Assembly: GCA_964394855.1 (NCBI GenBank)
Contig: CAYMZD010000002.1
Coordinates: forward strand, 60,575 to 124,574
Direction: 5' to 3'
From: an uncultured Gammaproteobacteria bacterium
Lineage (GTDB): Bacteria > Patescibacteriota > Microgenomatia > Daviesbacterales > UBA10151
DNA length: 64,000 nt
Part shown: positions 10,792-64,000 of the stretch, in pieces
Layout of the letters: each line of letters opens with the position of its first letter
Numbering within the stretch: position 1 is the first letter of the stretch
Notes under the pieces: model-generated
What the model saw: only the letters and a program-made list of their open reading frames with translations
The model's database searches: none
What the model was told of the DNA's origin: nothing
Program-made: the position numbers and the translations under genes

Positions 10792-12900
10792 TCATGCTCC
10801 AATGACTTTAAATGTGGAGCCTTCTGCATTTTTAGAAACTTCAATACGGACAGGGAACTCCTCTTTTAGCTCATCTAGATGGGTAATAATAATAATTTTT
10901 TCAAAATCATTTTTGATGGCATCTAAAACTTCCACAATTCTCGATCTTCCTTGGGTATCTTGAGTGCCAAAACCCTCATCAATCACCAAAAACTGCAGTC
11001 TGGCCCCGGCTCTTCTTGTTAAAAGCTTAGAGATGGCCAAGCGAATGGCAAAATTAACCCTGAAAGCTTCCCCTCCGGAATATAAATCATAGGGTCTTTC
11101 ACCCATCTCATCGGAAATAATAATATCCAGAGTCTCAATAATATTATCTGTGGTTTTCCCCTCGCGTTGAGTTAAAAAAGCCACTTTCATCCGGCCTTCT
11201 GTCAGTTTATCGAGCAGTTTATTAGCCTCATCCTCAATTTCAGGAATGGCAGTTTCTATAATCATGGCCTGGATGCCTTTTTTGCCAAAAGCCAAAGAGA
11301 GTTCCTCGAAATTTTGTTTTTCTTTTTCGAGAATTATTCTTTCTTCTATTTTTTGTTTTTGTAATTTTTGAAGCTGCATTGATCTGGATATTAACTCCGT
11401 TGCCTGACCAAGTAAGTTTCTGGTTTGTTTCTCCTCTGCTTGCAAATCGTTCAGCCTTCTTTCTTTTTCTGTCAAATCCCCCTCTGTTTTGGGAAGCTTT
11501 TCAAGTTCCAGCTGCAACTTTTCCACTTGTAATTTTTTATTTTTAAATAAATTAAGTAATTCTTCTCTGGTCTTTTTTTCCGTTTCCAAAGAGGCTCTAT
11601 CTTGTAAAATCTGCTCTTTTTGTTTTTGCAAATTTTCCAGTCCTTTCAAAGAGTTTTCCAAATCTTGAAGTTTTTGGGAATCAACTACCAAGGTAGATAA
11701 CACTTTTTCTATTTTTTTAATTTCCTGTTCTTCTTTTTCTGTTTTGATTTCTTGCAACTTTTTTCCTAGTCCCTCTTTCCTAGTTCCTAGTTCCTTGTGG
11801 ACTTTGTGCTTTAAATCTTTGCCAATTTCCTGCCCGCAAGTGGGGCATTTGGCACCCGGCATTGCCAGTTTTTTTAACTCATCTTGCAAATCATCCAATT
11901 GTTTTTGCAGGGTTTTTTTCTGCTCCAATTTAACATTTAGCCCTCCCTGCCAATCTGATAACTCTTTTTGCAGCTGCAGCTTTTCGTTCTGTTTTTTTCT
12001 TAAATCTTCCAGTTCTGTTTTTTCTTTTTGCAATTTTTCTATTCTATGTTCTATCTCTTCAAAATTCTTAATTCTTAAGTTCAAATTCTGAATTCTATTT
12101 GCTCTTTCCTTTCCCTGTGCTATAATCTGTTCCAGCTCTTTTTGCTGATCCTCCAAATTTTGCACAGTCTCTTTTTGTTTTTGTAAATTTTTTAAATCCT
12201 CTTCCAAAAGCTTAATGCTACCTTCAATTCCTTTAACTTTTTCTGTTTGTTCATGCAAGGTCTTCTCTCTCTCCTCTTTTTGCGATAGTTCCGCCTCAAT
12301 TTCCAATAGCTGATATTCCAAAAGTTTTAAGCTGTTTGCGGTCTCTTTAACTTTTTCCCGGGCACGCTCTTCCAGCTGGTCATAATGAGACAAACCCAAA
12401 ATATCTGCCAAAACTCTTTTTCTATCTGTTGGCCCTTTGGTGGTAAATTCATCGGCATGGCCCTGGCGTAAAAAGGAGGAGTTGGTAAAAGTTTCAAAGG
12501 AAAGATGAAGTGCATCAATTATTTTTTGCTGGGTAGTTTTAATGGTACCTTCGGTTAAATTATTTGCTTGTGGTGAGCCTGTCGAACCACTCCAAAATTC
12601 CAAATTACTGGAACCGCCACGGATTAAGCTTCTTTGCCTTTTGACAATAAATTCATGGCCATCCAGTTCAAAGGAGAACTCCACATACATTTCCTTGGCT
12701 CCCAGATGAATAAGCTCATCTGATGAGTCCCCGGCCCTTGACCAGCCCCATAAACACCAGGTAATGGCATCCAACAAAGATGATTTGCCGGCGCCATTGG
12801 ACCCGGAAATTGCAGCCAGTTTAAATTTTGTAAATTTAAGCTCCGGCACATTTTCCCCATAACTGGTAAAATTTGATAATTTCAGTGAAATGGGTATCAT
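10792..12900 (-). CDS. sbcC: SbcC/Rad50-like DNA repair ATPase
   Basis: Walker A ISGSNGAGKSSLLDAITWCLWG; long coiled-coil with central CPTCGQEI zinc-hook; C-terminal signature/Walker B (LQFLVIDEGFGTQD); adjacent to sbcD. Confidence 0.8.
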   Translation of the reverse strand: MIPISLKLSNFTSYGENVPELKFTKFKLAAISGSNGAGKSSLLDAITWCLWGWSRAGDSSDELIHLGAKEMYVEFSFELDGHEFIVKRQRSLIRGGSSNLEFWSGSTGSPQANNLTEGTIKTTQQKIIDALHLSFETFTNSSFLRQGHADEFTTKGPTDRKRVLADILGLSHYDQLEERAREKVKETANSLKLLEYQLLEIEAELSQKEEREKTLHEQTEKVKGIEGSIKLLEEDLKNLQKQKETVQNLEDQQKELEQIIAQGKERANRIQNLNLRIKNFEEIEHRIEKLQKEKTELEDLRKKQNEKLQLQKELSDWQGGLNVKLEQKKTLQKQLDDLQDELKKLAMPGAKCPTCGQEIGKDLKHKVHKELGTRKEGLGKKLQEIKTEKEEQEIKKIEKVLSTLVVDSQKLQDLENSLKGLENLQKQKEQILQDRASLETEKKTREELLNLFKNKKLQVEKLQLELEKLPKTEGDLTEKERRLNDLQAEEKQTRNLLGQATELISRSMQLQKLQKQKIEERIILEKEKQNFEELSLAFGKKGIQAMIIETAIPEIEDEANKLLDKLTEGRMKVAFLTQREGKTTDNIIETLDIIISDEMGERPYDLYSGGEAFRVNFAIRLAISKLLTRRAGARLQFLVIDEGFGTQDTQGRSRIVEVLDAIKNDFEKIIIITHLDELKEEFPVRIEVSKNAEGSTFKVIGA

Positions 12901-12903
12901 GAG

Positions 12904-14046
12904 TTAAAATAATTGTTCGGCAAATTTTAATAGCTCTTTTTGTCTTACCTTATCGTATTGTTTGGCAGAAAAATATTTTTTCAAAGCCTCCAAGGGGGTT
13001 AATCTTTCCACCTCTTCTTGTCCGTCTATTTTTAAACGTTCCTTTCTTTCCACATTCCGGGAAATGCCGGCAATAAAATGAGTATCTTTAAGAGTTTTTT
13101 TAATTAAATCCATTTGCAGGGTTTCATTTAAATCGGCTGGAATATTGATCACAATCCGAACAATTTTATCCATCACTTCGTGTTTTGAGATATCTTCTAA
13201 AACAGTTTGAGTGGGATTTACATCATCTGGTTTTAAATTTACCTCGATTGTCAAAAACTTTCTGGCATTGGTGGGAATAAATTTAAACCCTGTTTTTTTA
13301 CCAGAAATTTCCACCAGGCAAGCTCCTTTTTCCTCTTTCTCTTCCCCAAAATCTATTCTCTGGGGTGAGCCGGAATAAACTACTAATGGGTCTTTACTCA
13401 AAACCTGGTGTTTGTGAATATGACCTAAGGCCACATAATGCAAACGGCGGTCAGTTAAAAGGGATAGAGGGATGGTGACATCATTTTGGATGGCCATGCC
13501 TTTTTCCGACCCAAAACTTGCCCCTTCCACTTCGGCATGGGATAAAAATATGGCAGGGGAGTCAGGTTTAATTTTTTCATACAAAGAGTGAATTTTATCA
13601 CCGATAGTTTTATAGTCATTTTTATGAAGCCAGGGTAAAGTGACAATTTGCAAAGGGCCTGACTTGGTGGGGATTTGTAAAAGCTCCGGTTTTCTGGAAA
13701 CATAAACATTGTTTATTTCTAGGGTAGAGTAAATATCCAAAGTATTGGCTTTTCCCGCTGCATTAGGCGTATCATGATTTCCCACCACCAGAACTACTGG
13801 AGCAAACTTGGCTAATTTTTTTATTCTTTCCCCAAAACCACGTTGTTGAGTGGGGTTGGGGTCGCGGGTTTTATAGGCATCTCCGGCAAATAAAACCGCA
13901 TCAACCTCTTCTTTTTGCGAGAGCTCCACAATAAAATCAAGAGTGGCAAAAAAATCCAAAAGACGGGAGGATAAACCGGTTTCTGGATCTAATCGAGCAT
14001 AATTTTCCATGCCAATATGAAGATCAGAAAAATGAAGGAGCTTCAT
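12904..14046 (-). CDS. sbcD: SbcD/Mre11-like nuclease
   Basis: Calcineurin-like phosphoesterase motifs (MKLLHFSDLHIG, GDAYKTRDPNP, VVGNHD, GHIHKHQ). Start placed at MKLLHF (14046); the track ORF extends upstream to 14139, where it would overlap the neighbouring methyltransferase. Confidence 0.8.
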   Translation of the reverse strand: MKLLHFSDLHIGMENYARLDPETGLSSRLLDFFATLDFIVELSQKEEVDAVLFAGDAYKTRDPNPTQQRGFGERIKKLAKFAPVVLVVGNHDTPNAAGKANTLDIYSTLEINNVYVSRKPELLQIPTKSGPLQIVTLPWLHKNDYKTIGDKIHSLYEKIKPDSPAIFLSHAEVEGASFGSEKGMAIQNDVTIPLSLLTDRRLHYVALGHIHKHQVLSKDPLVVYSGSPQRIDFGEEKEEKGACLVEISGKKTGFKFIPTNARKFLTIEVNLKPDDVNPTQTVLEDISKHEVMDKIVRIVINIPADLNETLQMDLIKKTLKDTHFIAGISRNVERKERLKIDGQEEVERLTPLEALKKYFSAKQYDKVRQKELLKFAEQLF

Positions 14047-31771: not shown

Positions 31772-32503
31772 ATGGATTTGACAGATCGGCAAAGAGCACT
31801 TTTAAAAGCTATTATTGAAGAGTACATTGACAGCGCTGAACCTGTTGGTAGTGAAGCGGTGGATAAAAAGTATAATTTAGGGGTCTCCCCTGCCACCATT
31901 AGAAACGAGATGGTGCATCTAACAGATATGGGTTATTTAAAACAGCCACACACATCAGCAGGACGTGTCCCCACCTCAATGGGCTTTAGATTTTATATTC
32001 AGGAGTTGATGAAGGAAAAGCAGCTGCCTGTGGCGGCTGAAGTGTCCATCAAGGAAGACATGTGGCAGGAGCGCTACCAACAAGATAAGTTACTTCGCCA
32101 AGCTGTCAAAGCTTTGGCCAAGCAATGTGACATGTTGGGTTTGGCAATAGATAGCGACAACCAAATTTATTATTCAGGAGCTGCCAATATTTTGGACTGG
32201 CCGGAATTTTATGATATTGATGTGACTCGCTTTGTCTTGAGCTTATTTGATGATCTACCGGTTGGCGGGTTGCAACAAATTATTGGTAAGGCAGAAGGAT
32301 CTGACCCAATTCATATTTTATTTGGCGATGAGTTGGAATTTGAAAATTTAGCGCCCACTGGATTTATTTTTACCAGCTATGAAATGGGGCCAAAAAGTGG
32401 TGTGATTGGAGTAATTGGTCCGGCCAGGATGAATTTTCCTCTGGTGATACCTTATGTCAAATATATTAGAGATTTAATTTATGAAGCAGGAAGGAGTTGG
32501 TAA
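31772..32503 (+). CDS. hrcA: heat-inducible transcription repressor HrcA (compact)
   Basis: N-terminal wHTH LTDRQRALLKAIIEEYIDSAEPVGSEAV; operon position before grpE-dnaK-dnaJ. Confidence 0.8.
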   Translation: MDLTDRQRALLKAIIEEYIDSAEPVGSEAVDKKYNLGVSPATIRNEMVHLTDMGYLKQPHTSAGRVPTSMGFRFYIQELMKEKQLPVAAEVSIKEDMWQERYQQDKLLRQAVKALAKQCDMLGLAIDSDNQIYYSGAANILDWPEFYDIDVTRFVLSLFDDLPVGGLQQIIGKAEGSDPIHILFGDELEFENLAPTGFIFTSYEMGPKSGVIGVIGPARMNFPLVIPYVKYIRDLIYEAGRSW

Positions 32504-32943
32504 TGCCCAAGAAAAAAGACACCAAAGTTGAAGAATTAGAAAATCAGCTTAAAAGAGCAGTGGCTGATTATCATAATCTGGAAAAACGGGTTAGTGAAGG
32601 TAGGTCGGAACTAACTAATTTTGTGGGAGCGGAGCTTATTAAAAGACTGCTGCCGGTTTTAGATCATCTGGAAAGGGCTTTATCTAGCGCATCAGAACTG
32701 GAAAAAGAATCAGGATGGTTTAAGGGAGTAGAGCTGGCTGTTAAAGAATTTGAGCAGGTATTACAATCTGAAGGTTTGGAGGAAATACCTGCAGACGGAG
32801 TATTTAATCCAAGCCTTCATGAAGCTGTTGACACAAGGGATGGAGAAAATAATATGATTTTAGAAGTTGTCAAAAAGGGTTATAATTTAAATGGAAAAGT
32901 ACTTCGCCCGGCCCAAGTAGTAGTTGGAAGGAGGAGAAACTAA
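32497..32943 (+). CDS. grpE: nucleotide exchange factor GrpE
   Basis: [17 protein letters not shown] coiled-coil and C-terminal beta-domain ([18 protein letters not shown]). Confidence 0.85.
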
Positions 32944-32944
32944 T

Positions 32945-34876
32945 ATGGCTAAAATTGTGGGAATTGATTTGGGGACAACTAATAGTGTGGTGGCGGTGAT
33001 GGAGGGGGGAAAACCCAAAGTCATCCATAGTAGTGAAGGGGAAAATATTATCCCCTCGGTGGTTAATCCCTTAAAAAATGTGGTGGGACGGGTGGCCAAA
33101 CGTCAGTCTGTGGTTAATCCCAAAGAAACCATTTTTTCTATTAAGCGCTTAGTGGGCAGAAAATTCAAAGACAGTGAGGTGCAGCGCGACATTAAATGGC
33201 TGCCTTATGAAATTAAAGAAGGCAAAAACGGTATGGCTGTGGTGGAAGTGGAAGGCCATGAATACACCCCCCAGGAAATTTCCGCCCAGATTTTGCAAAA
33301 AATCAAGGCTGATGCCGAGAGCTATTTGGGAGAAAAAGTAACTGACGCGGTTATCACCGTGCCGGCCTATTTTGACGATTCTCAGAGACAAGCCACCAAA
33401 CAGGCCGGGGAAATTGCCGGTTTTAATGTGCAGAGAATTATTAACGAGCCAACTGCCGCAGCTTTAGCTTATGGCCTTGATAAAACCCATGCCCACACCA
33501 TTGCTGTTTATGATTTAGGAGGCGGCACTTTTGACATTTCCATTTTGGAGCTGGGAGACGGGGTAATTGAGGTGAAAAGTACCAACGGCGATACCCACCT
33601 GGGTGGGGATGATTTTGACCAAGTGATTTTGGATCATCTGGCAGAAGAATTTAAAAAAGAGCAGGGTATTGATTTAAAAACAGACAGGCAAGCCTTGCAG
33701 AGGCTGCGCGACGCAGCGGAAAAAGCCAAAATTGAGCTATCCAGCACCCAAGAGGCGGAAATTTCCATCCCTTTTGTGACAGCAGATTCTAGTGGCCCCA
33801 AACATTTGGAAGTAAAAATGTCCCGGGCCAAGCTGGAAGGCATGATTAAATCTTTAATTGATAAAAGTTTTGAGGCGGTTAAGTCTGCTTTGAAAGACGC
33901 CAAAATGGAAGCCGGTAAAATTGATGAAGTGGTGCTGGTAGGAGGTATGACCCGCATGCCGGCAGTACAAAAAGCAGTCCAAGACTTTTTTGGTAAAGAG
34001 CCTCACAAGGGAATTAATCCAGATGAGGTGGTGGCGGTTGGGGCTGCTATTCAAGGCGGAGTATTGGGTGGAGAAGTGAAAGATGTTTTGCTTTTGGATG
34101 TGACCCCCTTAACTTTGGGAATTGAAACTTTGGGTGGAGTGAGAACACCTTTGATTGTCAGAAATACCACCATTCCATCTTCTAAATCAGAAATTTTCTC
34201 CACAGCGGCTGATAATCAAACCTCGGTGGAAATTAATGTTTTACAAGGGGAGCGGGAAATGGCAGCTGATAATAAGAGCTTGGGCAGGTTTATTTTAGAC
34301 GGCATTCCCCCTGCCCCAAGAGGCGTGCCCCAAATCGAAGTAACTTTTGACATTGATGCCAACGGTATTTTAATAGTCAGCGCTCATGATAAAGCTACAG
34401 GCAAAAAACAAAACATCACCATTACCGGATCAACCGGACTTGATAAAGAAGAAGTAGAGAAAATGACCAAAGAGGCAGAAGCCCATGCTGAAGAGGATAA
34501 ACGCAAAAGAGAAGAGGTGGATACCAGAAATCAGGCAGATGCTTTGATTTTTACGACTGAAAGGAGTTTGAAAGAGGCAGGGGATAAAGTTAGCCAAGAG
34601 GTTCGAACCGAGGTGGAACAGAAATTAAATGATCTAAAATCTGTGGTTCAAACAGCTTCTATTGAGGACCTAAAACCCAAGATGGATGCATTGTCTGAAA
34701 GCTTACAAAAAGTAGGGCAGGCAATGTATTCCTCCTCCGCTCCTGAAGGAGCTACGGAAGGGCAAGGAGCCCCCGGTGAAGAACCAAAAACAGAAGACGC
34801 GTCCTCCGAAGCCTCGGCGAAGGAGGAAACTCCTGTTGAGGGTGAAGTGGTTGAGGAAGATAATAAAAAAGAGTAA
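32945..34876 (+). CDS. dnaK: molecular chaperone DnaK (Hsp70)
   Basis: [42 protein letters not shown]; start placed 2 nt after the grpE stop. Confidence 0.95.
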
Positions 34877-34879
34877 TGG

Positions 34880-35764
34880 ATGGCTACAAAAAGAGATTAC
34901 TACGATATTTTAGGGGTTTCCAAGGGAGCCGGTGAAGCGGAGATTAAGTCTGCTTATCGCAAACTGGCCAGAAAACACCATCCTGATATAGATAAATCTG
35001 CTGGAAGTGCGGAAAGATTCAAAGAGGTTTCCGAAGCATATCAAGTTCTATCTGACCCTCAGAAAAAATCTTCTTATGACCAATTTGGCCATTCGGCCTT
35101 TGACCCTTCGGCAGGCTCAGGGCCTTTTGGTAGAGGAGCTGGCGGTTGGCAGCAATATAGTTGGTCAACCGGTGGGTTTTCCGCCAAAGGCGGACCAGCC
35201 TCTGGCTGGGACTTTGGTGGTTTTGAAGATCCATTTGAACTGTTTGAACAGATTTTTGGCATGGGTGGGTTTGGAGAAGGGATGAGGAGAAGACCCACTT
35301 ATACCATGGATTTAAAATTTGACGAGGCAGTTCATGGTGTCACTAAACAAATTCAAGTTGAGGATAAAAAAATGACCATTAAAGTACCGGCCGGAGTGGA
35401 TAATGGTACCAGAATGCGCTTTAATGAGTTGGATATTGTTTTTCATGTTAACCGCCACCCGGAATTTATTAGAGAAGGAGCGGATATTTTTTCGGAAATA
35501 AAAGTTTCTATTCCCCAACTGGTTTTGGGGGATGTCTTTGAAGTTTCAACTGTGCAGGGGAAAGTAAAAGTGAAGGTGCCCCCTGGCACCCAACCAGGAT
35601 CGCTGGTTAGGCTCAAAGGCAAGGGTGTTCCCAGATTAAATGGTGGCCACGGAGATCACTATGTCAGAGTCCATCTAAATGTTCCTCAAAACCCATCCAA
35701 AGAAGAAAAAAGGCTTTATGAAGAGTTATATCGCTTGGGTTCCAAGAAAAAAGGTTGGTTTTAA
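34880..35764 (+). CDS. dnaJ: DnaJ-family co-chaperone (J domain + G/F region + CTD, no Zn-finger)
   Basis: J-domain with HPD ([11 protein letters not shown]), Gly/Phe-rich linker, C-terminal substrate-binding beta-domains; no CxxCxGxG repeats. Confidence 0.8.
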
Positions 35765-35825
35765 ACTTGACTTTTAAGATACTGACAGAGTAGAATATTG
35801 TTGTTAATAATCCAAAGGACCTAAA

Positions 35826-35853
35826 AAGGTGGGCTAGTCCCACCTTAATTTTT
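35826..35853 (+). terminator. rho-independent terminator after dnaJ
   Basis: aaggtggg-ctagt-cccacctt (8-bp stem) then aattttt, ending 4 nt before the nusA ATG. A possible promoter (ttgact-18-tagaat) lies at 35767-35800. Confidence 0.55.
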
Positions 35854-35856
35854 ACT

Positions 35857-36906
35857 ATGGCACAAGCTAGAACAGAATTTGTAGCTGCCCTAAATCAAAT
35901 AGCTTCTGAAAAAGGAGTAGACGTATCAGTTGTTTTGGATGCTATTAAGATTGCAGCTCTAGCTGCCTATAAAAAAGATTTAAGCATCCGTAGCCAACCC
36001 ATTCCAGAAGATATTGATGAATATACCTCTGAAGTAAACCCCACCACAGGCGAAATAACCATTTTCCAAGGTCAAAATAACGTTACTCCGCCTGGATTTG
36101 CCCGTATTGCTGCCTCAATTGCCAAACAGGTAATTTTGCAAAAACTGCACGAGGCAGAAAAAAGTGCTGTCATGTCTGAATATGAAAACAAAATTGGCAC
36201 AGTTATTTCAGGTTTAATACAGCGTCAAGAGGGCAACACGTATTTTATTGATTTGGGGAGAGCAGAAGGAATGATGCCACCCCAGGAGCAGGTGAGGAGT
36301 GAAATTTATCAGCCTAATATGAGGATGAAGTTTTATATCAAAGACATAAGAGAAGAAAGCCATGGTTTGGAAGTAATAGTTTCTCGTAGCGATCCGGGTT
36401 TAGTTAAAGGTCTTTTTGCCATGGAGGTGCCGGAAATTCAATCAGGCAGTGTAGAGATTGTGGTTTTGGCTAGGGAAGCTGGTTCTAGAACTAAAATTGC
36501 CGCCTCCTCCAGTCAAGATGGTGTGGATCCGGTAGGTTCTTTAGTGGGACAAAAAGGAGTGAGAGTTCAAGCAGTTACTCAAGAGCTGGGAGAGGAAAAA
36601 ATTGACATCATTACTTACTCCGACGATCCGGCCCGTTTTATCCAGGCAGCGCTTTCTCCAGCCAAAGATGTTCAGGTTCGTTTAAACAAAGAAGAGAATG
36701 TGGCTAAAGCTTTAGTACCTAACTCTCAACTATCTTTGGCCATTGGTAAAGGTGGACAAAATGTGCGTTTAGCAGCCAAGCTGACTGGTTGGAAAATTGA
36801 TATTGAAGGATTGGAAGAGGAGGGAACGGGAGAGCAAAAAGAAGAGCCTCAAGCTGGAACTCAACCCCCTGATGATGTAAAAGCTGATAAAAAAGAAAAG
36901 AAGTAA
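35857..36906 (+). CDS. nusA: transcription termination/antitermination factor NusA
   Basis: NusA N-domain, S1 ([21 protein letters not shown]) and KH1/KH2 ([23 protein letters not shown]), acidic tail. Confidence 0.9.
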
Positions 36907-36910
36907 AAAT

Positions 36911-38365
36911 ATGGCAGAAATGACACGTCCGCCCATAGTCACTATACTCGGCCATGTTGACCATGGCAAAACTACCCTACTTGATTTTATCAGGAAATCC
37001 TCTGTAGCAGCAAAGGAACATGGTGGGATTACCCAGCATATTGGTGCATATCAAGTTGAACATGATGGTAAATTAATTACTTTTATTGATACTCCTGGAC
37101 ATGCTGCTTTTGAAAAAATGCGCTCTAGGGGCGCTAAAGTGGCAGACATTGCAGTTTTGGTGGTGGCAGTAGATGATGGGGTGATGCCACAAACTATTGA
37201 GGCTATCAAACACATTCAGGAGGCAAAAGTCCCCATGATTGTAGCTATTAATAAAACAGATTTACCTGGCATAAATGTAAAAGTACAGCTGGAGAAGATT
37301 AAAAAGCAACTTTCAGACCAAAAAGTTTTAGCAGAAGAATATGGAGGAGATGTGCCCATAATTTCACTTTCTGCCAAAACCGGTGAAGGTGTGGATAAAC
37401 TCTTGGAGATGATCAGTCTGTTAGCAGAGCTGCATGAGCTTAAAAGTGAATCTGATATAGCGCCATCAGGAGTAGTGATTGAGGCTAATTTAGATAAATC
37501 CAGAGGCCCGCTGGCCACACTTTTAATAAGAAATGGCACTTTAAAAAAAGGTATACAGATTATAGTGGGTGGAGTAAAAGGTAAGATCAAGGGTATGTTT
37601 GATTTCAATGGGAAGAGTATAGAAGCGGCTGGCCCTTCTACTCCGGTGGAAGTGCTTGGACTTGAGAGTGTTCCAGGGGTGGGTGCTACTTTGGGACAGG
37701 AAATGGAACAAGAATCAAGAATGAAGCAGCAAGAGCTAAGCTTACTTGAAAAATTAAAGGCAGGAGAAAGTAAAACTCTAAAAGTGATTATTAAAGCTGA
37801 TAAGCAAGGATCGCTAGAGGCTATTGTCCATTCTTTGGACAAAATTAATAAAAATGCCAAACTGATAGAAGTTATTTCAAGCGGGACAGGAGATATATTG
37901 GAGGGTGATGTGAAGCTGGCTTCGTCTGTGGGGGCGATCATTATTGGATTTAATGTCAAGGTGGTACCAACCGCTGTTAAAATGGCTGAAACAGAGCATG
38001 TTTTAATAAGAACCTACAATATTATATATGAGCTGCTCTCGGAGCTAGAAGATGTTTTGGAGGGGATGTTTAAGGTGGGGCAAGTAGAGGAGATTTTAGG
38101 CAAAGCTAATATTATTGCTGAATTCCCCTTTGGAAAGTCAGAGCGAGTTCTCGGGTGTCGGGTCATTGAAGGAGTAATTAGTAAAGGATCAAAAATAAGA
38201 GTGAAAAGGGATGAAGAGGTAGTGGGCGAGAGTAAACTAAAGTCCTTAAGGGTTGTGAAAGATGAAGTGCAAAAGGCAGAAAAGGGTCAAGATTGCGGCA
38301 TGCTTTTTGATCCTGCCATAGATTTCCAAATAGGGGACACAGTAGAATCCTTCAGGGTAATATGA
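36911..38365 (+). CDS. infB: translation initiation factor IF-2 (short form lacking the N-terminal extension)
   Basis: G-domain [28 protein letters not shown]; C-terminal beta-barrels. Confidence 0.9.
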
Positions 38366-61759: not shown

Positions 61760-62242
61760 ATGCCAACTATTAGTCAACTTGTTAGAAAAGGCAGAAAAAA
61801 GGTGAGTAAAAAAATTAAAGCTACGGCACTGCGCCGAAGCTTTAATGCTAAAAGTCGCCGCTATATCCAAACTTTTAATCCGTATAAGCGGGGAGTGGTC
61901 ACTTTGGTTAAAACCATGACTCCCAAAAAACCCAACTCTGCCCTCCGTAAGGTGGCCAGGGTGAGACTTTCCAATAGAACAGAGGTAACTGCTTATATCC
62001 CTGGGGTTGGACATAACTTGGCTGAACACGGTATTGTTTTGGTAAGGGGTGGAAGAGTAAAAGATTTACCAGGTGTAAAGTATCATATTATTCGTGGCAA
62101 ATTAGATTTGGAAGGAGTGATGGGTAGGAAAAGAGGTAGATCAAAATATGGAGCTAAACGTTCTGGTACAATGGCCCCACGTCCCCAAACCGGACCAGCT
62201 CCAGAGGTAGCTCAAGTAAGAGGTATAACAAATGAGGAGTAA
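61760..62242 (+). CDS. rpsL: 30S ribosomal protein S12 (with internal ~12-aa insertion and ~25-aa C-terminal extension)
   Basis: [70 protein letters not shown]. Extra segment [14 protein letters not shown] and a tail [26 protein letters not shown] overlapping the rpsG start. Confidence 0.9.
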
Positions 62243-62708
62243 AAAAGCCCCCAAAAGAATACTTGCACCTGATCCAATATATAACTCTAGGTTACTTCAC
62301 CGTTTTATCAACAAAGTGATGAAAGACGGTAAAAAAGACCTGGCTCAAAGATTGGTTTATTTGGCCTTGGATCAAATTAAAAAAGCAAAAGGTGAAGATG
62401 TCTTGAAAGTTTTTGAGCAGGCTGTTTCTAATGTTTCTCCCAAAATGGAGGTTCGCCCACGTAGAGTGGGAGGCGCATCCTATCAAGTGCCAGCGGAGGT
62501 ACGGGGGGACAGGAGAGAAGCTTTGGCTATTAGATGGATTATTGAAGGAGCCAAATCCCGTCCCAATAAAGAGTTTCATCACTTTTATGAAAAATTGGCG
62601 GCAGAACTGCAAGATGCCAGTCAAAATACAGGCTGGGCCATTAAGAAAAAGGATGATATGCAAAAAGTAGCTGCAGCCAATAGGGCTTTTGCTCATTTTA
62701 GGTGGTAA
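62232..62708 (+). CDS. rpsG: 30S ribosomal protein S7
   Basis: [50 protein letters not shown]; RBS aagagg 8 nt upstream. Confidence 0.93.
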
Positions 62709-62770
62709 TAATTCTACAAGAGATTATATTTGACTTTTAGCCTCAAAGAGGTTATGATTTATTGTAATAG

Positions 62771-62799
62771 CCTCCCAAAATATCAGAGGGAGGTTTTTT
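62771..62799 (+). terminator. rho-independent terminator/attenuator after rpsG
   Basis: cctccc-aaaatatcaga-gggagg followed by tttttt. Confidence 0.6.
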
Positions 62800-62817
62800 A
62801 ATAAGAGGTACAATGAA

Positions 62818-63042
62818 GTGATGGATAAAAAATTAACACAACAAAAATTGAAGATGTGGAAGGAAAATTTAGCTCATCTGGAAAATGAGCTTGCTTCCGT
62901 AATGGCAAAAAAGGGAGAAGCGGCCCAAAAGGGGGACCTTTCGGAAAATGCAGCCTATACTATGGCATCGGAAGACGCTGATACTTACAGGGTACAGATT
63001 AATCAGGTGAAAAAAATCATTGCAAACTTGGAGAGTAAGTAA
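62818..63042 (+). CDS. Gre-factor N-terminal coiled-coil domain-only protein (GreA NTD homologue, no FKBP-like CTD)
   Basis: [36 protein letters not shown] matches the GreA/GreB NTD signature GDLxENAEY with acidic tip residues. 74 aa. Stop overlaps the fusA ATG (TAATG). Confidence 0.55.
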
Positions 63043-64000
63043 TGGCTATACAAAAGACCAAAAGGGATTTACCGCTGGATCGAATCAGAAATATTGGTAT
63101 CATAGCCCACATTGATGCTGGCAAAACCACTACCACCGAGCGGATTCTTTTTTATACTGGTAAAACTTATAAGATAGGGAACATTGATGAGGGTACCACG
63201 GTGACCGACTGGATGGCCCAGGAGCGGGAGCGGGGAATTACCATTGTTTCTGCAGCCATTACCACTTTTTGGACCCCTAAAGCTGGGCCATTTGAAAATC
63301 AAGAAACCAGGATCAATATCATTGATACTCCGGGGCATGTTGATTTTACGGCTGAAGTGGAACGCTCCCTTCGAGTTTTAGATGGTGGAGTGATTGTTTT
63401 GGATGCAGCATCAGGCGTGCAATCTCAAACTGAAACTGTTTGGAGACAGGCCAATAAATATAAAGTGCCTTTAATTGCTTTTGCCAATAAAATGGATGTG
63501 GTGGGGGCTGATTTTCTGGGTACTATCCAGTCAGCTCGTGATCGCTTGGGTGCTAATGCTGTTGCCTATAATTTACCAATTGGCCAGGAAAATGATTTCG
63601 AAGGAGTAGTTGATCTTTTAAGTAAAAAAGCTTTTATTTGGGAAGGAGTTTCCACAGGAGCACAGTTTGTGGAAACAGATATACCCAAGGATTTAGTGGA
63701 AACAGTAGAAACTCATCGCGAGAAACTCGTTGAAGAGATTGCTGGAACAGATGATATTCTAATGGAAAAATATTTAGCTGGGCAAGATATTCCTGTGGAG
63801 GAGTTAAAAAAAGCTCTCCGCCAAGCAGTTATTGATAATAAAATTGTTCCAGTGCTGGCAGGTAGTTCTCTTCGCAACAAAGGGGTTCAACCCATGCTAG
63901 ATACCGTAGTGGAATATTTACCCTCCCCACAAGATATTGCCTCTATTCATGGAACTAATCCCCAAACCGGTGAGGAGGAGGAAAGAAAAGCCGATCCAGA
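63042..64000 (+). CDS. fusA: elongation factor G, 3'-partial (runs off window)
   Basis: [53 protein letters not shown]; open at window end. Confidence 0.93.

Follow-up and report, generated by a model that had tools for sequence, protein, structure and literature searches.

Within a window of 64,000 nucleotides from the contig CAYMZD010000002.1 (positions 60,575 to 124,574; GTDB lineage Patescibacteriota, Microgenomatia, Daviesbacterales), the short gene directly upstream of fusA encodes a protein that consists solely of the N-terminal coiled coil of a Gre factor. The gene, here called mini-gre, is located at 62821–63042 on the forward strand (coordinates refer to the window unless a related locus is named) and specifies 73 amino acids. 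By the usual description, a Gre factor has two domains: a globular C-terminal domain (CTD) that binds RNA polymerase (RNAP) and a coiled coil that catalyzes. We assign a probability of roughly 0.6 to the reading that mini-Gre is a free-standing, CTD-less secondary-channel factor of the Gre type, co-expressed with elongation factor EF-G. The domain itself is well known; what is new is the existence of natural, strongly conserved, and diversified coiled-coil-only Gre homologues tied to fusA. A literature search returned no publication naming GreA together with Microgenomates or Patescibacteria, and genes of the mini-gre type are currently annotated as hypothetical proteins or as generic members of the GreA/GreB family.

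The domain identity was assessed with profile hidden Markov models. The Pfam family GreA_GreB_N (PF03449) matched mini-Gre with 44 bits (E 2.6e-11; gathering cut-off 24.5 bits) across profile positions 3–69 of 71. In the same way, the NCBIfam greA models matched over the first ~70 of their 151–160 positions only and scored below threshold (TIGR01462, 42.9 bits vs. a cut-off of 139; NF001263, 37.4 bits vs. 145). The original prediction of an open reading frame (ORF) that holds only the Gre N-domain with its coiled-coil signature was thereby confirmed, as was the absence of an FKBP-like CTD from this ORF: the reading frame closes after residue 73, directly at the start of fusA. The TAA stop (63040–63042) and the fusA ATG (63042–63044) have one A in common, so that the anticipated TAATG overlap is indeed present. 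The predicted length of 74 amino acids was corrected to 73, counted from the ATG at 62821. This start (M-D-K-K) is used by all homologues and by the NCBI annotation; an alternative GTG at 62818 would give 74 residues. The 73-residue product is 100% identical to the NCBI hypothetical protein HY386_00950 (73 aa). It contains no cysteine and gave no match to the DksA/TraR Pfam family.

The strongest conservation was found at the tip of the hairpin, G38-D39-L40-S41-E42-N43-A44-A45-Y46, encoded at 62932–62958 (forward strand). In an alignment of 57 orthologues, position S41 was kept in 84% of the sequences and the other eight tip residues were invariant. Compared with the sequences of the PDB, the family profile matched a Thermus (Tth) GreA chimera (4wqt) and E. 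coli GreA (1grj). The mini-Gre tip aligns to GDLKENAEY of 1grj, and D39 and E42 therefore correspond to D41 and E44 of E. coli GreA, the residues mutated in the antipause-defective E. coli GreA variant D41A E44Y (PMC7527559). An AF2 model computed with the family alignment (mean pLDDT 87.4) predicts a helix at residues 3–36, a loop at 37–43, and a second helix at 44–72. Its best Foldseek match in the PDB was again 1grj (root-mean-square deviation 1.3 Å over 61 columns, 28% identity), with an E-value that was not significant, and GreB (2p4v) was also among the matches. The invariant residues K9 and W13, together with conserved hydrophobic residues near both termini, sit at the open end of the hairpin, the point at which a CTD would be joined.

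Homologues of the same architecture are widespread. A search of a protein collection yielded 91 homologue clusters (90% identity), all of 53–97 amino acids and all with PF03449 as the only domain; the named ones stem from Daviesbacteria, Microgenomates, or Patescibacteria. A scan of a genome collection with one genome per GTDB species, in which the single pattern GDL[SR]ENAAY was used, gave 80 loci. At 56 of these loci, each from another species-level genome of Daviesbacteria or a relative (L004–L061 except L057 and L059), fusA is immediately preceded by an orthologue of 72–86 amino acids, and the ORF is intact in all 56, neither missing nor disrupted. Among the 49 orthologues with a mapped fusA start, the gap between the two genes was −8 to +5 nt in 37 and 31–141 nt in the other 12. 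The interval to rpsG ranged from 23 to ~3,900 nt and contained variable cargo genes; it is thus mini-gre and fusA that form the conserved unit, rather than rpsG and mini-gre. The placement between rpsG and fusA that had been predicted applies to the window, but only the linkage to fusA is conserved.

In the window, rpsG (ribosomal protein S7; Pfam Ribosomal_S7, E 5.1e-57) occupies 62232–62708 and fusA (Pfam GTP_EFTU, E 2.3e-62) runs from 63042 off the right end at 64000, both on the forward strand. The window's own locus, extended beyond this end (L001), contains the full EF-G of 712 amino acids. The local gene order is rpoB-rpoC-rpsL-rpsG-[mini-gre]-fusA-(insert)-tuf-rpsJ-rplC.... The motif GGAGAG in the last mini-gre codons (63030–63035, forward strand), 8 nt before the fusA ATG, is likely the Shine-Dalgarno (SD) sequence of fusA; purine-rich, GGAG-like 3' ends were seen in most mini-gre orthologues.

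Purifying selection on mini-gre is evident from codon comparisons. The median ratio of nonsynonymous to synonymous substitutions (dN/dS) was 0.16 over 291 orthologue pairs (pairwise Nei-Gojobori, dS below 2). Thirteen residues were invariant in the 57 orthologues (K9, W13, G32, A34, A35, G38, D39, L40, E42, N43, A44, A45, and Y46), and synonymous codons varied at these very positions, with six codons in use for L40 and four for G38. What is constrained is thus the protein itself rather than an RNA element or the mere presence of an ORF.

These data bear directly on the idea, put forward in the original prediction, of a remnant kept for translational coupling to fusA. Such a decaying greA remnant or upstream ORF would have no peptide function and would be retained for the delivery of ribosomes to the fusA start. 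The TAATG overlap and the gaps of −8 to +5 nt in 37 of 49 orthologues agree with it, as do the purine-rich 3' codons, which may serve as an SD sequence for fusA. It is contradicted by the dN/dS of 0.16 and by the 13 residues that are invariant under synonymous codon turnover. Furthermore, the 12 orthologues located 31–141 nt from fusA are still conserved, two of them with a promoter-hairpin module of their own before fusA, and paralogues that are not adjacent to fusA have the same tip. Mini-gre is not a remnant, and we consider this explanation the least probable of all those weighed here. A programmed frameshift fusing mini-Gre to EF-G was rejected as well, given that the two genes are anywhere from −8 to +141 nt apart.

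To locate a CTD, the window was translated in six frames and searched, without any filters, using a profile built from E. coli GreA and 18 full-length GreA proteins of the candidate phyla radiation (CPR). No Gre CTD was found in any frame of the 64 kb. The single match was mini-gre itself, at profile positions 1–70 only, which excludes a frameshifted full-length greA; an adjacent CTD-encoding sequence in another frame was thus absent. The surroundings of 58 related loci, examined in all frames to about ±4 kb, likewise encode no Gre CTD. Since other CPR bacteria encode greA in the neighborhood of mreC-mreD-pbp2 and lysS, these genes were also looked for, and none was found in the window or the related loci. 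The region 31772–38365 of the window, checked as a possible greA neighborhood, proved to be an ordinary hrcA-grpE-dnaK-dnaJ-nusA-infB cluster according to Pfam.

In a split Gre factor, anchoring would be the task of a partner, either a separately encoded CTD-only protein or an unrelated docking protein bound to RNAP. The invariant K9 and W13 and the terminal hydrophobic residues, placed at the open end where a CTD would attach, are compatible with such a partner. The searches of the window and of the 58 related loci speak against it, and the PF01272 domain is absent from rpoB and rpoC. CTD-only matches in databases are gene fragments: a search of a collection of 5.8 billion proteins with a CTD profile returned short fragments only (≤133 aa), a result that is uninformative for Daviesbacteria. 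One candidate CTD-only family of 85 amino acids was rejected as an artefact, as its long-read contig is full of frameshifts and carries cytochrome bc1, and is hence not from CPR. Taken together, we regard a split factor as quite improbable. The presence or absence of a canonical GreA in these genomes would decide whether mini-Gre is to be read as a replacement of GreA or as an additional factor.

Beyond the direct orthologues, mini-Gre belongs to a wider family of N-only proteins. When 1.84 billion representatives were searched exhaustively with HMMER and the family profile, ~30 short representatives ranked above any full-length GreA; the N-only proteins scored 60–110 bits and full-length GreA proteins ≤50 bits. 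No close two-domain relative is known. A K-(L/I)-x-x-W motif in helix 1 is common to all short variants and is lacking in canonical GreA. The tips of the short matches vary and include GDLRENAAF, GDWHENAEF, and degenerate forms such as NLGDDSALQ. Four distant N-only variants on long contigs (P0115, P0108, P0388, and P0398) are situated directly upstream of fusA, following rpsG and at least one cargo gene, and two of these four loci contain tandem N-only pairs. Tandems of two N-only Gre genes before fusA were noted in L086 (5835–6246) and L090 (3619–4231). One copy in each has a GDLRENAA(F/Y) tip, and the second copy of L086 has a tip of the GDW(Q/H)ENAEY type. A search of a phage collection gave a single weak match on an unannotated contig of 8.7 kb and was uninformative. 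A Collierbacteria protein of 70 amino acids (P0416) was not accepted as a family member; the match was weak, with neither a Pfam match nor linkage to fusA.

A second N-only paralogue with the same tip as mini-Gre is encoded away from fusA in L057, L059, and L062–L064; the genomes of L059 and L063 also hold a fusA-linked copy. A third, tandem paralogue (L062 1835–2056, L063 4256–4480, and L064 1797–2051) has the tip G-Y-L-S-E-N-A-Y-K, with Tyr in place of the first catalytic Asp and a deletion of one residue. Judged by its sequence, this paralogue may be a naturally occurring variant that is inactive or inhibitory. The family has thus diversified in a way that recalls the radiation of GreA, GreB, and Gfh1 in other bacteria, here built from hairpins alone, which suggests that function resides in the hairpin itself.

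The paralogues also raise the question of whether mini-Gre cleaves at all. It could instead be a non-cleaving regulator or competitor in the secondary channel, comparable to Gfh1, Rv3788, or DksA/TraR, that modulates initiation, pausing, or nucleotide addition, possibly beside a canonical GreA. The occurrence of tip variants (GYLSENAY, GDWxENAEY, and degenerate forms) in the same clade, mirroring the diversification of GreA and Gfh1, is in line with this proposal, and Gfh1 and Rv3788 have acidic tips and yet do not cleave (PMC4598747). Against it, the Daviesbacteria orthologues have the exact GreA-type tip G-D-L-x-E-N-A-x-Y, invariant in 57 sequences, and the known inhibitors all retain the CTD. 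A regulator without cleavage activity appears unlikely on balance, and it is nevertheless the most probable of the alternatives.

Alternatively, the hairpin might have been re-purposed for the translation machinery, binding EF-G or the ribosome or bridging RNAP and the ribosome. The only point in favor of such a role is the gene order rpoB-rpoC-rpsL-rpsG-(cargo)-mini-gre-fusA-tuf-rpsJ, conserved over a wide clade. The constraint is strongest on precisely those tip residues that Gre factors bring to the RNAP active site, and free-standing paralogues are unlinked to fusA; we therefore rate a role in translation as very unlikely.

The unit of mini-gre and fusA is preceded by a conserved module. 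In the relatives, it starts with TTGACTTTTAGGATCAAAA...TTAATAT, corresponding to a consensus −35 element, a 17-nt spacer, and a −10 element. In most relatives, the promoter-like site is followed after 7–13 nt by a GC-rich hairpin and a T-run, and the start codon is usually located 9–50 nt further on. TTGACTT and TA..AT were invariant in 48 aligned relatives. The orthologue of this conserved TTGACTTTTAGG...TAATAT element in the window is the promoter-like site TTGACT-17-TATGAT at 62730–62758 (forward strand; 10/12 consensus match). The leader hairpin is found at 62769–62799 (forward strand), with the core CCTCCC (62771–62776)/GGGAGG (62788–62793), an 11-nt loop, and a T6 run at 62794–62799. Shaped like an intrinsic terminator and starting 12 nt past the −10 hexamer, it is present in both the minimum free energy and the centroid fold. 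A simple terminator scan missed it because its loop is longer than 8 nt.

With a covariance model of promoter and hairpin, 52 of the 56 loci each gave one strong match; the only strong match of the window was 62730–62813 (58.8 bits). This model, with a stated structure, took the place of RNAalifold on a MAFFT alignment of the leaders, in which misalignment of the variable loops had left no predicted pairs. The stem covaries, as illustrated by CCTCCC/GGGAGG, GCCTCCT/AGGGGGC, GATCCCT/GGGGGTC, TCTCCCG/TGGGAGA, and CCTCAT/GTGAGG. Six of seven stem pairs change on both sides. Such changes were counted in 19 cells, compared to 8.8±2.3 in column shuffles, none of which reached this value in 500 trials, and the stated pairing performed clearly better than the same pairing slid by 1–3 columns. 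The module is missing in L040 and in L030, L031, and L035, where mini-gre follows rpsG after 23–24 nt. Nothing near a gathering score was found in Rfam for 62600–63100.

A transcription start 6–8 nt after the −10 hexamer would put the whole hairpin at the 5' end of the transcript, and the hairpin is therefore best regarded as a leader element of the mini-gre-fusA unit. The GC-rich stem and T6 that had been predicted as a terminator-attenuator at 62771–62799 are present, but since they lie after a conserved promoter-like site they are not simply the terminator of rpsG. Similarly, the SD-like AAGAGG described as a good ribosome binding site exists at 62803–62808 (forward strand), at a distance of 12 nt from the ATG and 9 nt from the GTG, but it is not conserved; around the start codon, about half of the orthologues lack any SD-like sequence. 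Sequestration of the SD sequence was accordingly rejected as the main role of the hairpin, the more so as the distance from its 3' arm to the ATG ranges from 9 to >100 nt across relatives.

Three small features of the leader were noted in addition. A two-codon upstream ORF, ATG-AAG-TGA (62813–62821), has a stop that overlaps the mini-gre ATG (TGATG) and is not conserved in relatives. The promoter spacer of the window contains a small hairpin, TAGCCTC-AAA-GAGGTTA (62738–62754). In the relatives, the conserved spacer reads TTTAGGATCAAAA, and its TTGA...TCAA symmetry with the −35 element might be a regulator site.

The closest parallel to this arrangement is the leader of E. coli greA, in which the terminator GraL stops two-thirds of the transcripts (PMC2836576) and mediates autoregulation of GreA in cis (PMC6829880). 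The mini-gre leader resembles it in its layout of a promoter-like site, a short leader with a terminator-like hairpin and T-run, and a gre gene. There is no sequence similarity between the two, and the mini-gre leader differs in being shorter, in having its hairpin only a few nucleotides after the presumed start, and in probably also controlling fusA.

Based on these observations, we propose the following mechanism for mini-Gre as a Gre-type factor. The antiparallel coiled-coil hairpin of ~75 residues would enter the secondary channel of RNAP and present the invariant D39 and E42 of its tip to the active site, stimulating the cleavage of backtracked or misincorporated RNA. The lack of an anchoring CTD would be made up for by K9 and W13 at the hairpin's open end, by high expression from the first position in the EF-G operon, or by both. 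Mini-gre and fusA would be transcribed from their own conserved promoter through the promoter-proximal hairpin and U-run. Like the greA/GraL leader of E. coli, this element would end a fraction of the transcripts, and it would insulate the unit from the variable genes upstream; attenuation might extend to autoregulation. Translation of fusA would be coupled to that of mini-gre via the stop/start overlap. The suggestion of a secondary-channel peptide, made in the original prediction, remains the best reading of an N-domain-only protein, with RNAP binding and cleavage as its putative activities.

Several points weigh against this proposal. PMC7104715 and PMC7527559 describe the CTD as the RNAP-binding module and both domains as necessary for full GreA activity. 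The overexpressed NTD (N-terminal domain) of E. coli GreA alone does not have the toxicity of full-length GreA (PMC7527559), which suggests weak binding. The D-x-x-E tip is absent from the distant fusA-linked proteins P0108 and P0113, and catalysis is therefore not universal in the wider family. The structural matches need to be interpreted with care, as the Foldseek E-values were not significant because a helical hairpin is a generic fold. Regarding termination, the hairpin stems are short (5–9 bp) and the loops measure up to 14 nt. Finally, the module is not specific to gre genes, given that copies occur elsewhere: a second copy lies between mini-gre and fusA in L060 and L061, and a weaker one is found downstream of fusA in L001 (12612–12699, 26.6 bits).

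The comparison with known systems helps to delimit mini-Gre. GreA and GreB (PF03449 plus PF01272; 1grj, 2p4v) have a homologous N-terminal coiled coil of the same length and the same tip motif with two catalytic acidic residues. In contrast to them, mini-Gre has no C-terminal globular RNAP-binding domain, and it has a family-specific K-x-x-x-W motif in helix 1. A truncated and otherwise comparable protein has been made in the laboratory: according to PMC7104715 (citing Koulich et al., 1998) and PMC7527559, the NTD of E. coli GreA comprises residues 1–75 and carries the determinants of cleavage, and the CTD binds RNAP. The engineered GreA-NTD (1–75) thus has the same boundaries and size as mini-Gre. 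It is a construct with impaired function, whereas mini-Gre is natural, under purifying selection, and diversified into paralogues. Gfh1 from Thermus and Rv3788 from M. tuberculosis are functionally diverged members of the Gre family, to which the GYLSENAY and GDWxENAEY paralogues may be analogous. Both possess a CTD (PMC4598747); mini-Gre does not, and its tip is of the GreA type rather than the Gfh1 type.

A precedent in size is TraR of the F plasmid. It is a truncated DksA homologue of 73 amino acids and still a functional miniature secondary-channel factor. TraR belongs to the unrelated DksA/TraR family with a zinc finger, whereas mini-Gre has no cysteine.

The genomic context is also distinct. 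Mini-gre is part of the str operon, directly before fusA, whereas greA of other CPR bacteria is found in the order mreC-mreD-pbp2-greA-lysS. Full-length greA genes of 148–168 amino acids were observed in 19 loci (L065–L083) from Parcubacteria-type genomes, Saccharibacteria, and Dojkabacteria. They were located downstream of an mreC-mreD-pbp2-like cluster in 8–10 of the 19 and upstream of a lysS-like gene in 7, these neighbors being assigned from size and sequence appearance only.

If mini-Gre acts as proposed, it would show that the hairpin works or is anchored without a CTD, or that the RNAP of reduced-genome bacteria binds Gre factors differently. A natural, CTD-less, fusA-linked Gre family would surprise specialists and lends itself to direct testing. 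It would offer a minimal natural scaffold for studies of secondary-channel factors and a testable case of a transcription fidelity factor coupled to the EF-G operon. The corresponding hypothetical-protein genes deserve a family name. A broader and more tentative view is that Daviesbacteria and their relatives, a large Microgenomates clade of CPR, have replaced the two-domain GreA by hairpins of ~75 amino acids. These would form a toolkit of catalytic and mutated tips (cf. GreA, Gfh1, and DksA), with the main member leading the EF-G operon behind a self-regulated attenuator. We regard this generalization as possible and rather doubtful; if true, the capacity for transcript proofreading and rescue would be tied to the synthesis of the translation elongation machinery.

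The interval between rpsG and mini-gre is a hot spot for cargo, measuring 0 to ~3.9 kb (e.g., L008 930–3787, L022 1076–3847, and L023 1597–3913). Recurrent cargo comprises a protein of ~175 amino acids (MxxIIFExHxTxxDNExxLSSGHxD...), a protein of ~148 amino acids (MTQVSKYPISK...), and small paired ORFs that resemble toxin-antitoxin modules. None of the cargo proteins in this interval was identified with hidden Markov models. Upstream, rpsL (61760–62242) encodes an S12 protein of 160 amino acids with a C-terminal extension of ~25 residues, relatives aligning to about residue 136 only, and overlaps the rpsG start by 11 nt.

Downstream of fusA in L001, a short way past the right end of the window, the last 32 nt of the gene are duplicated (12329–12360 and 12739–12770, 97% identical, 410 nt apart). 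The two repeats flank an insert with a small ORF and the second promoter-hairpin-T6 module at 12612–12699. This insert, situated between fusA and a convergent ORF of 118 amino acids (12767–13123, minus strand), resembles an insertion with target duplication.

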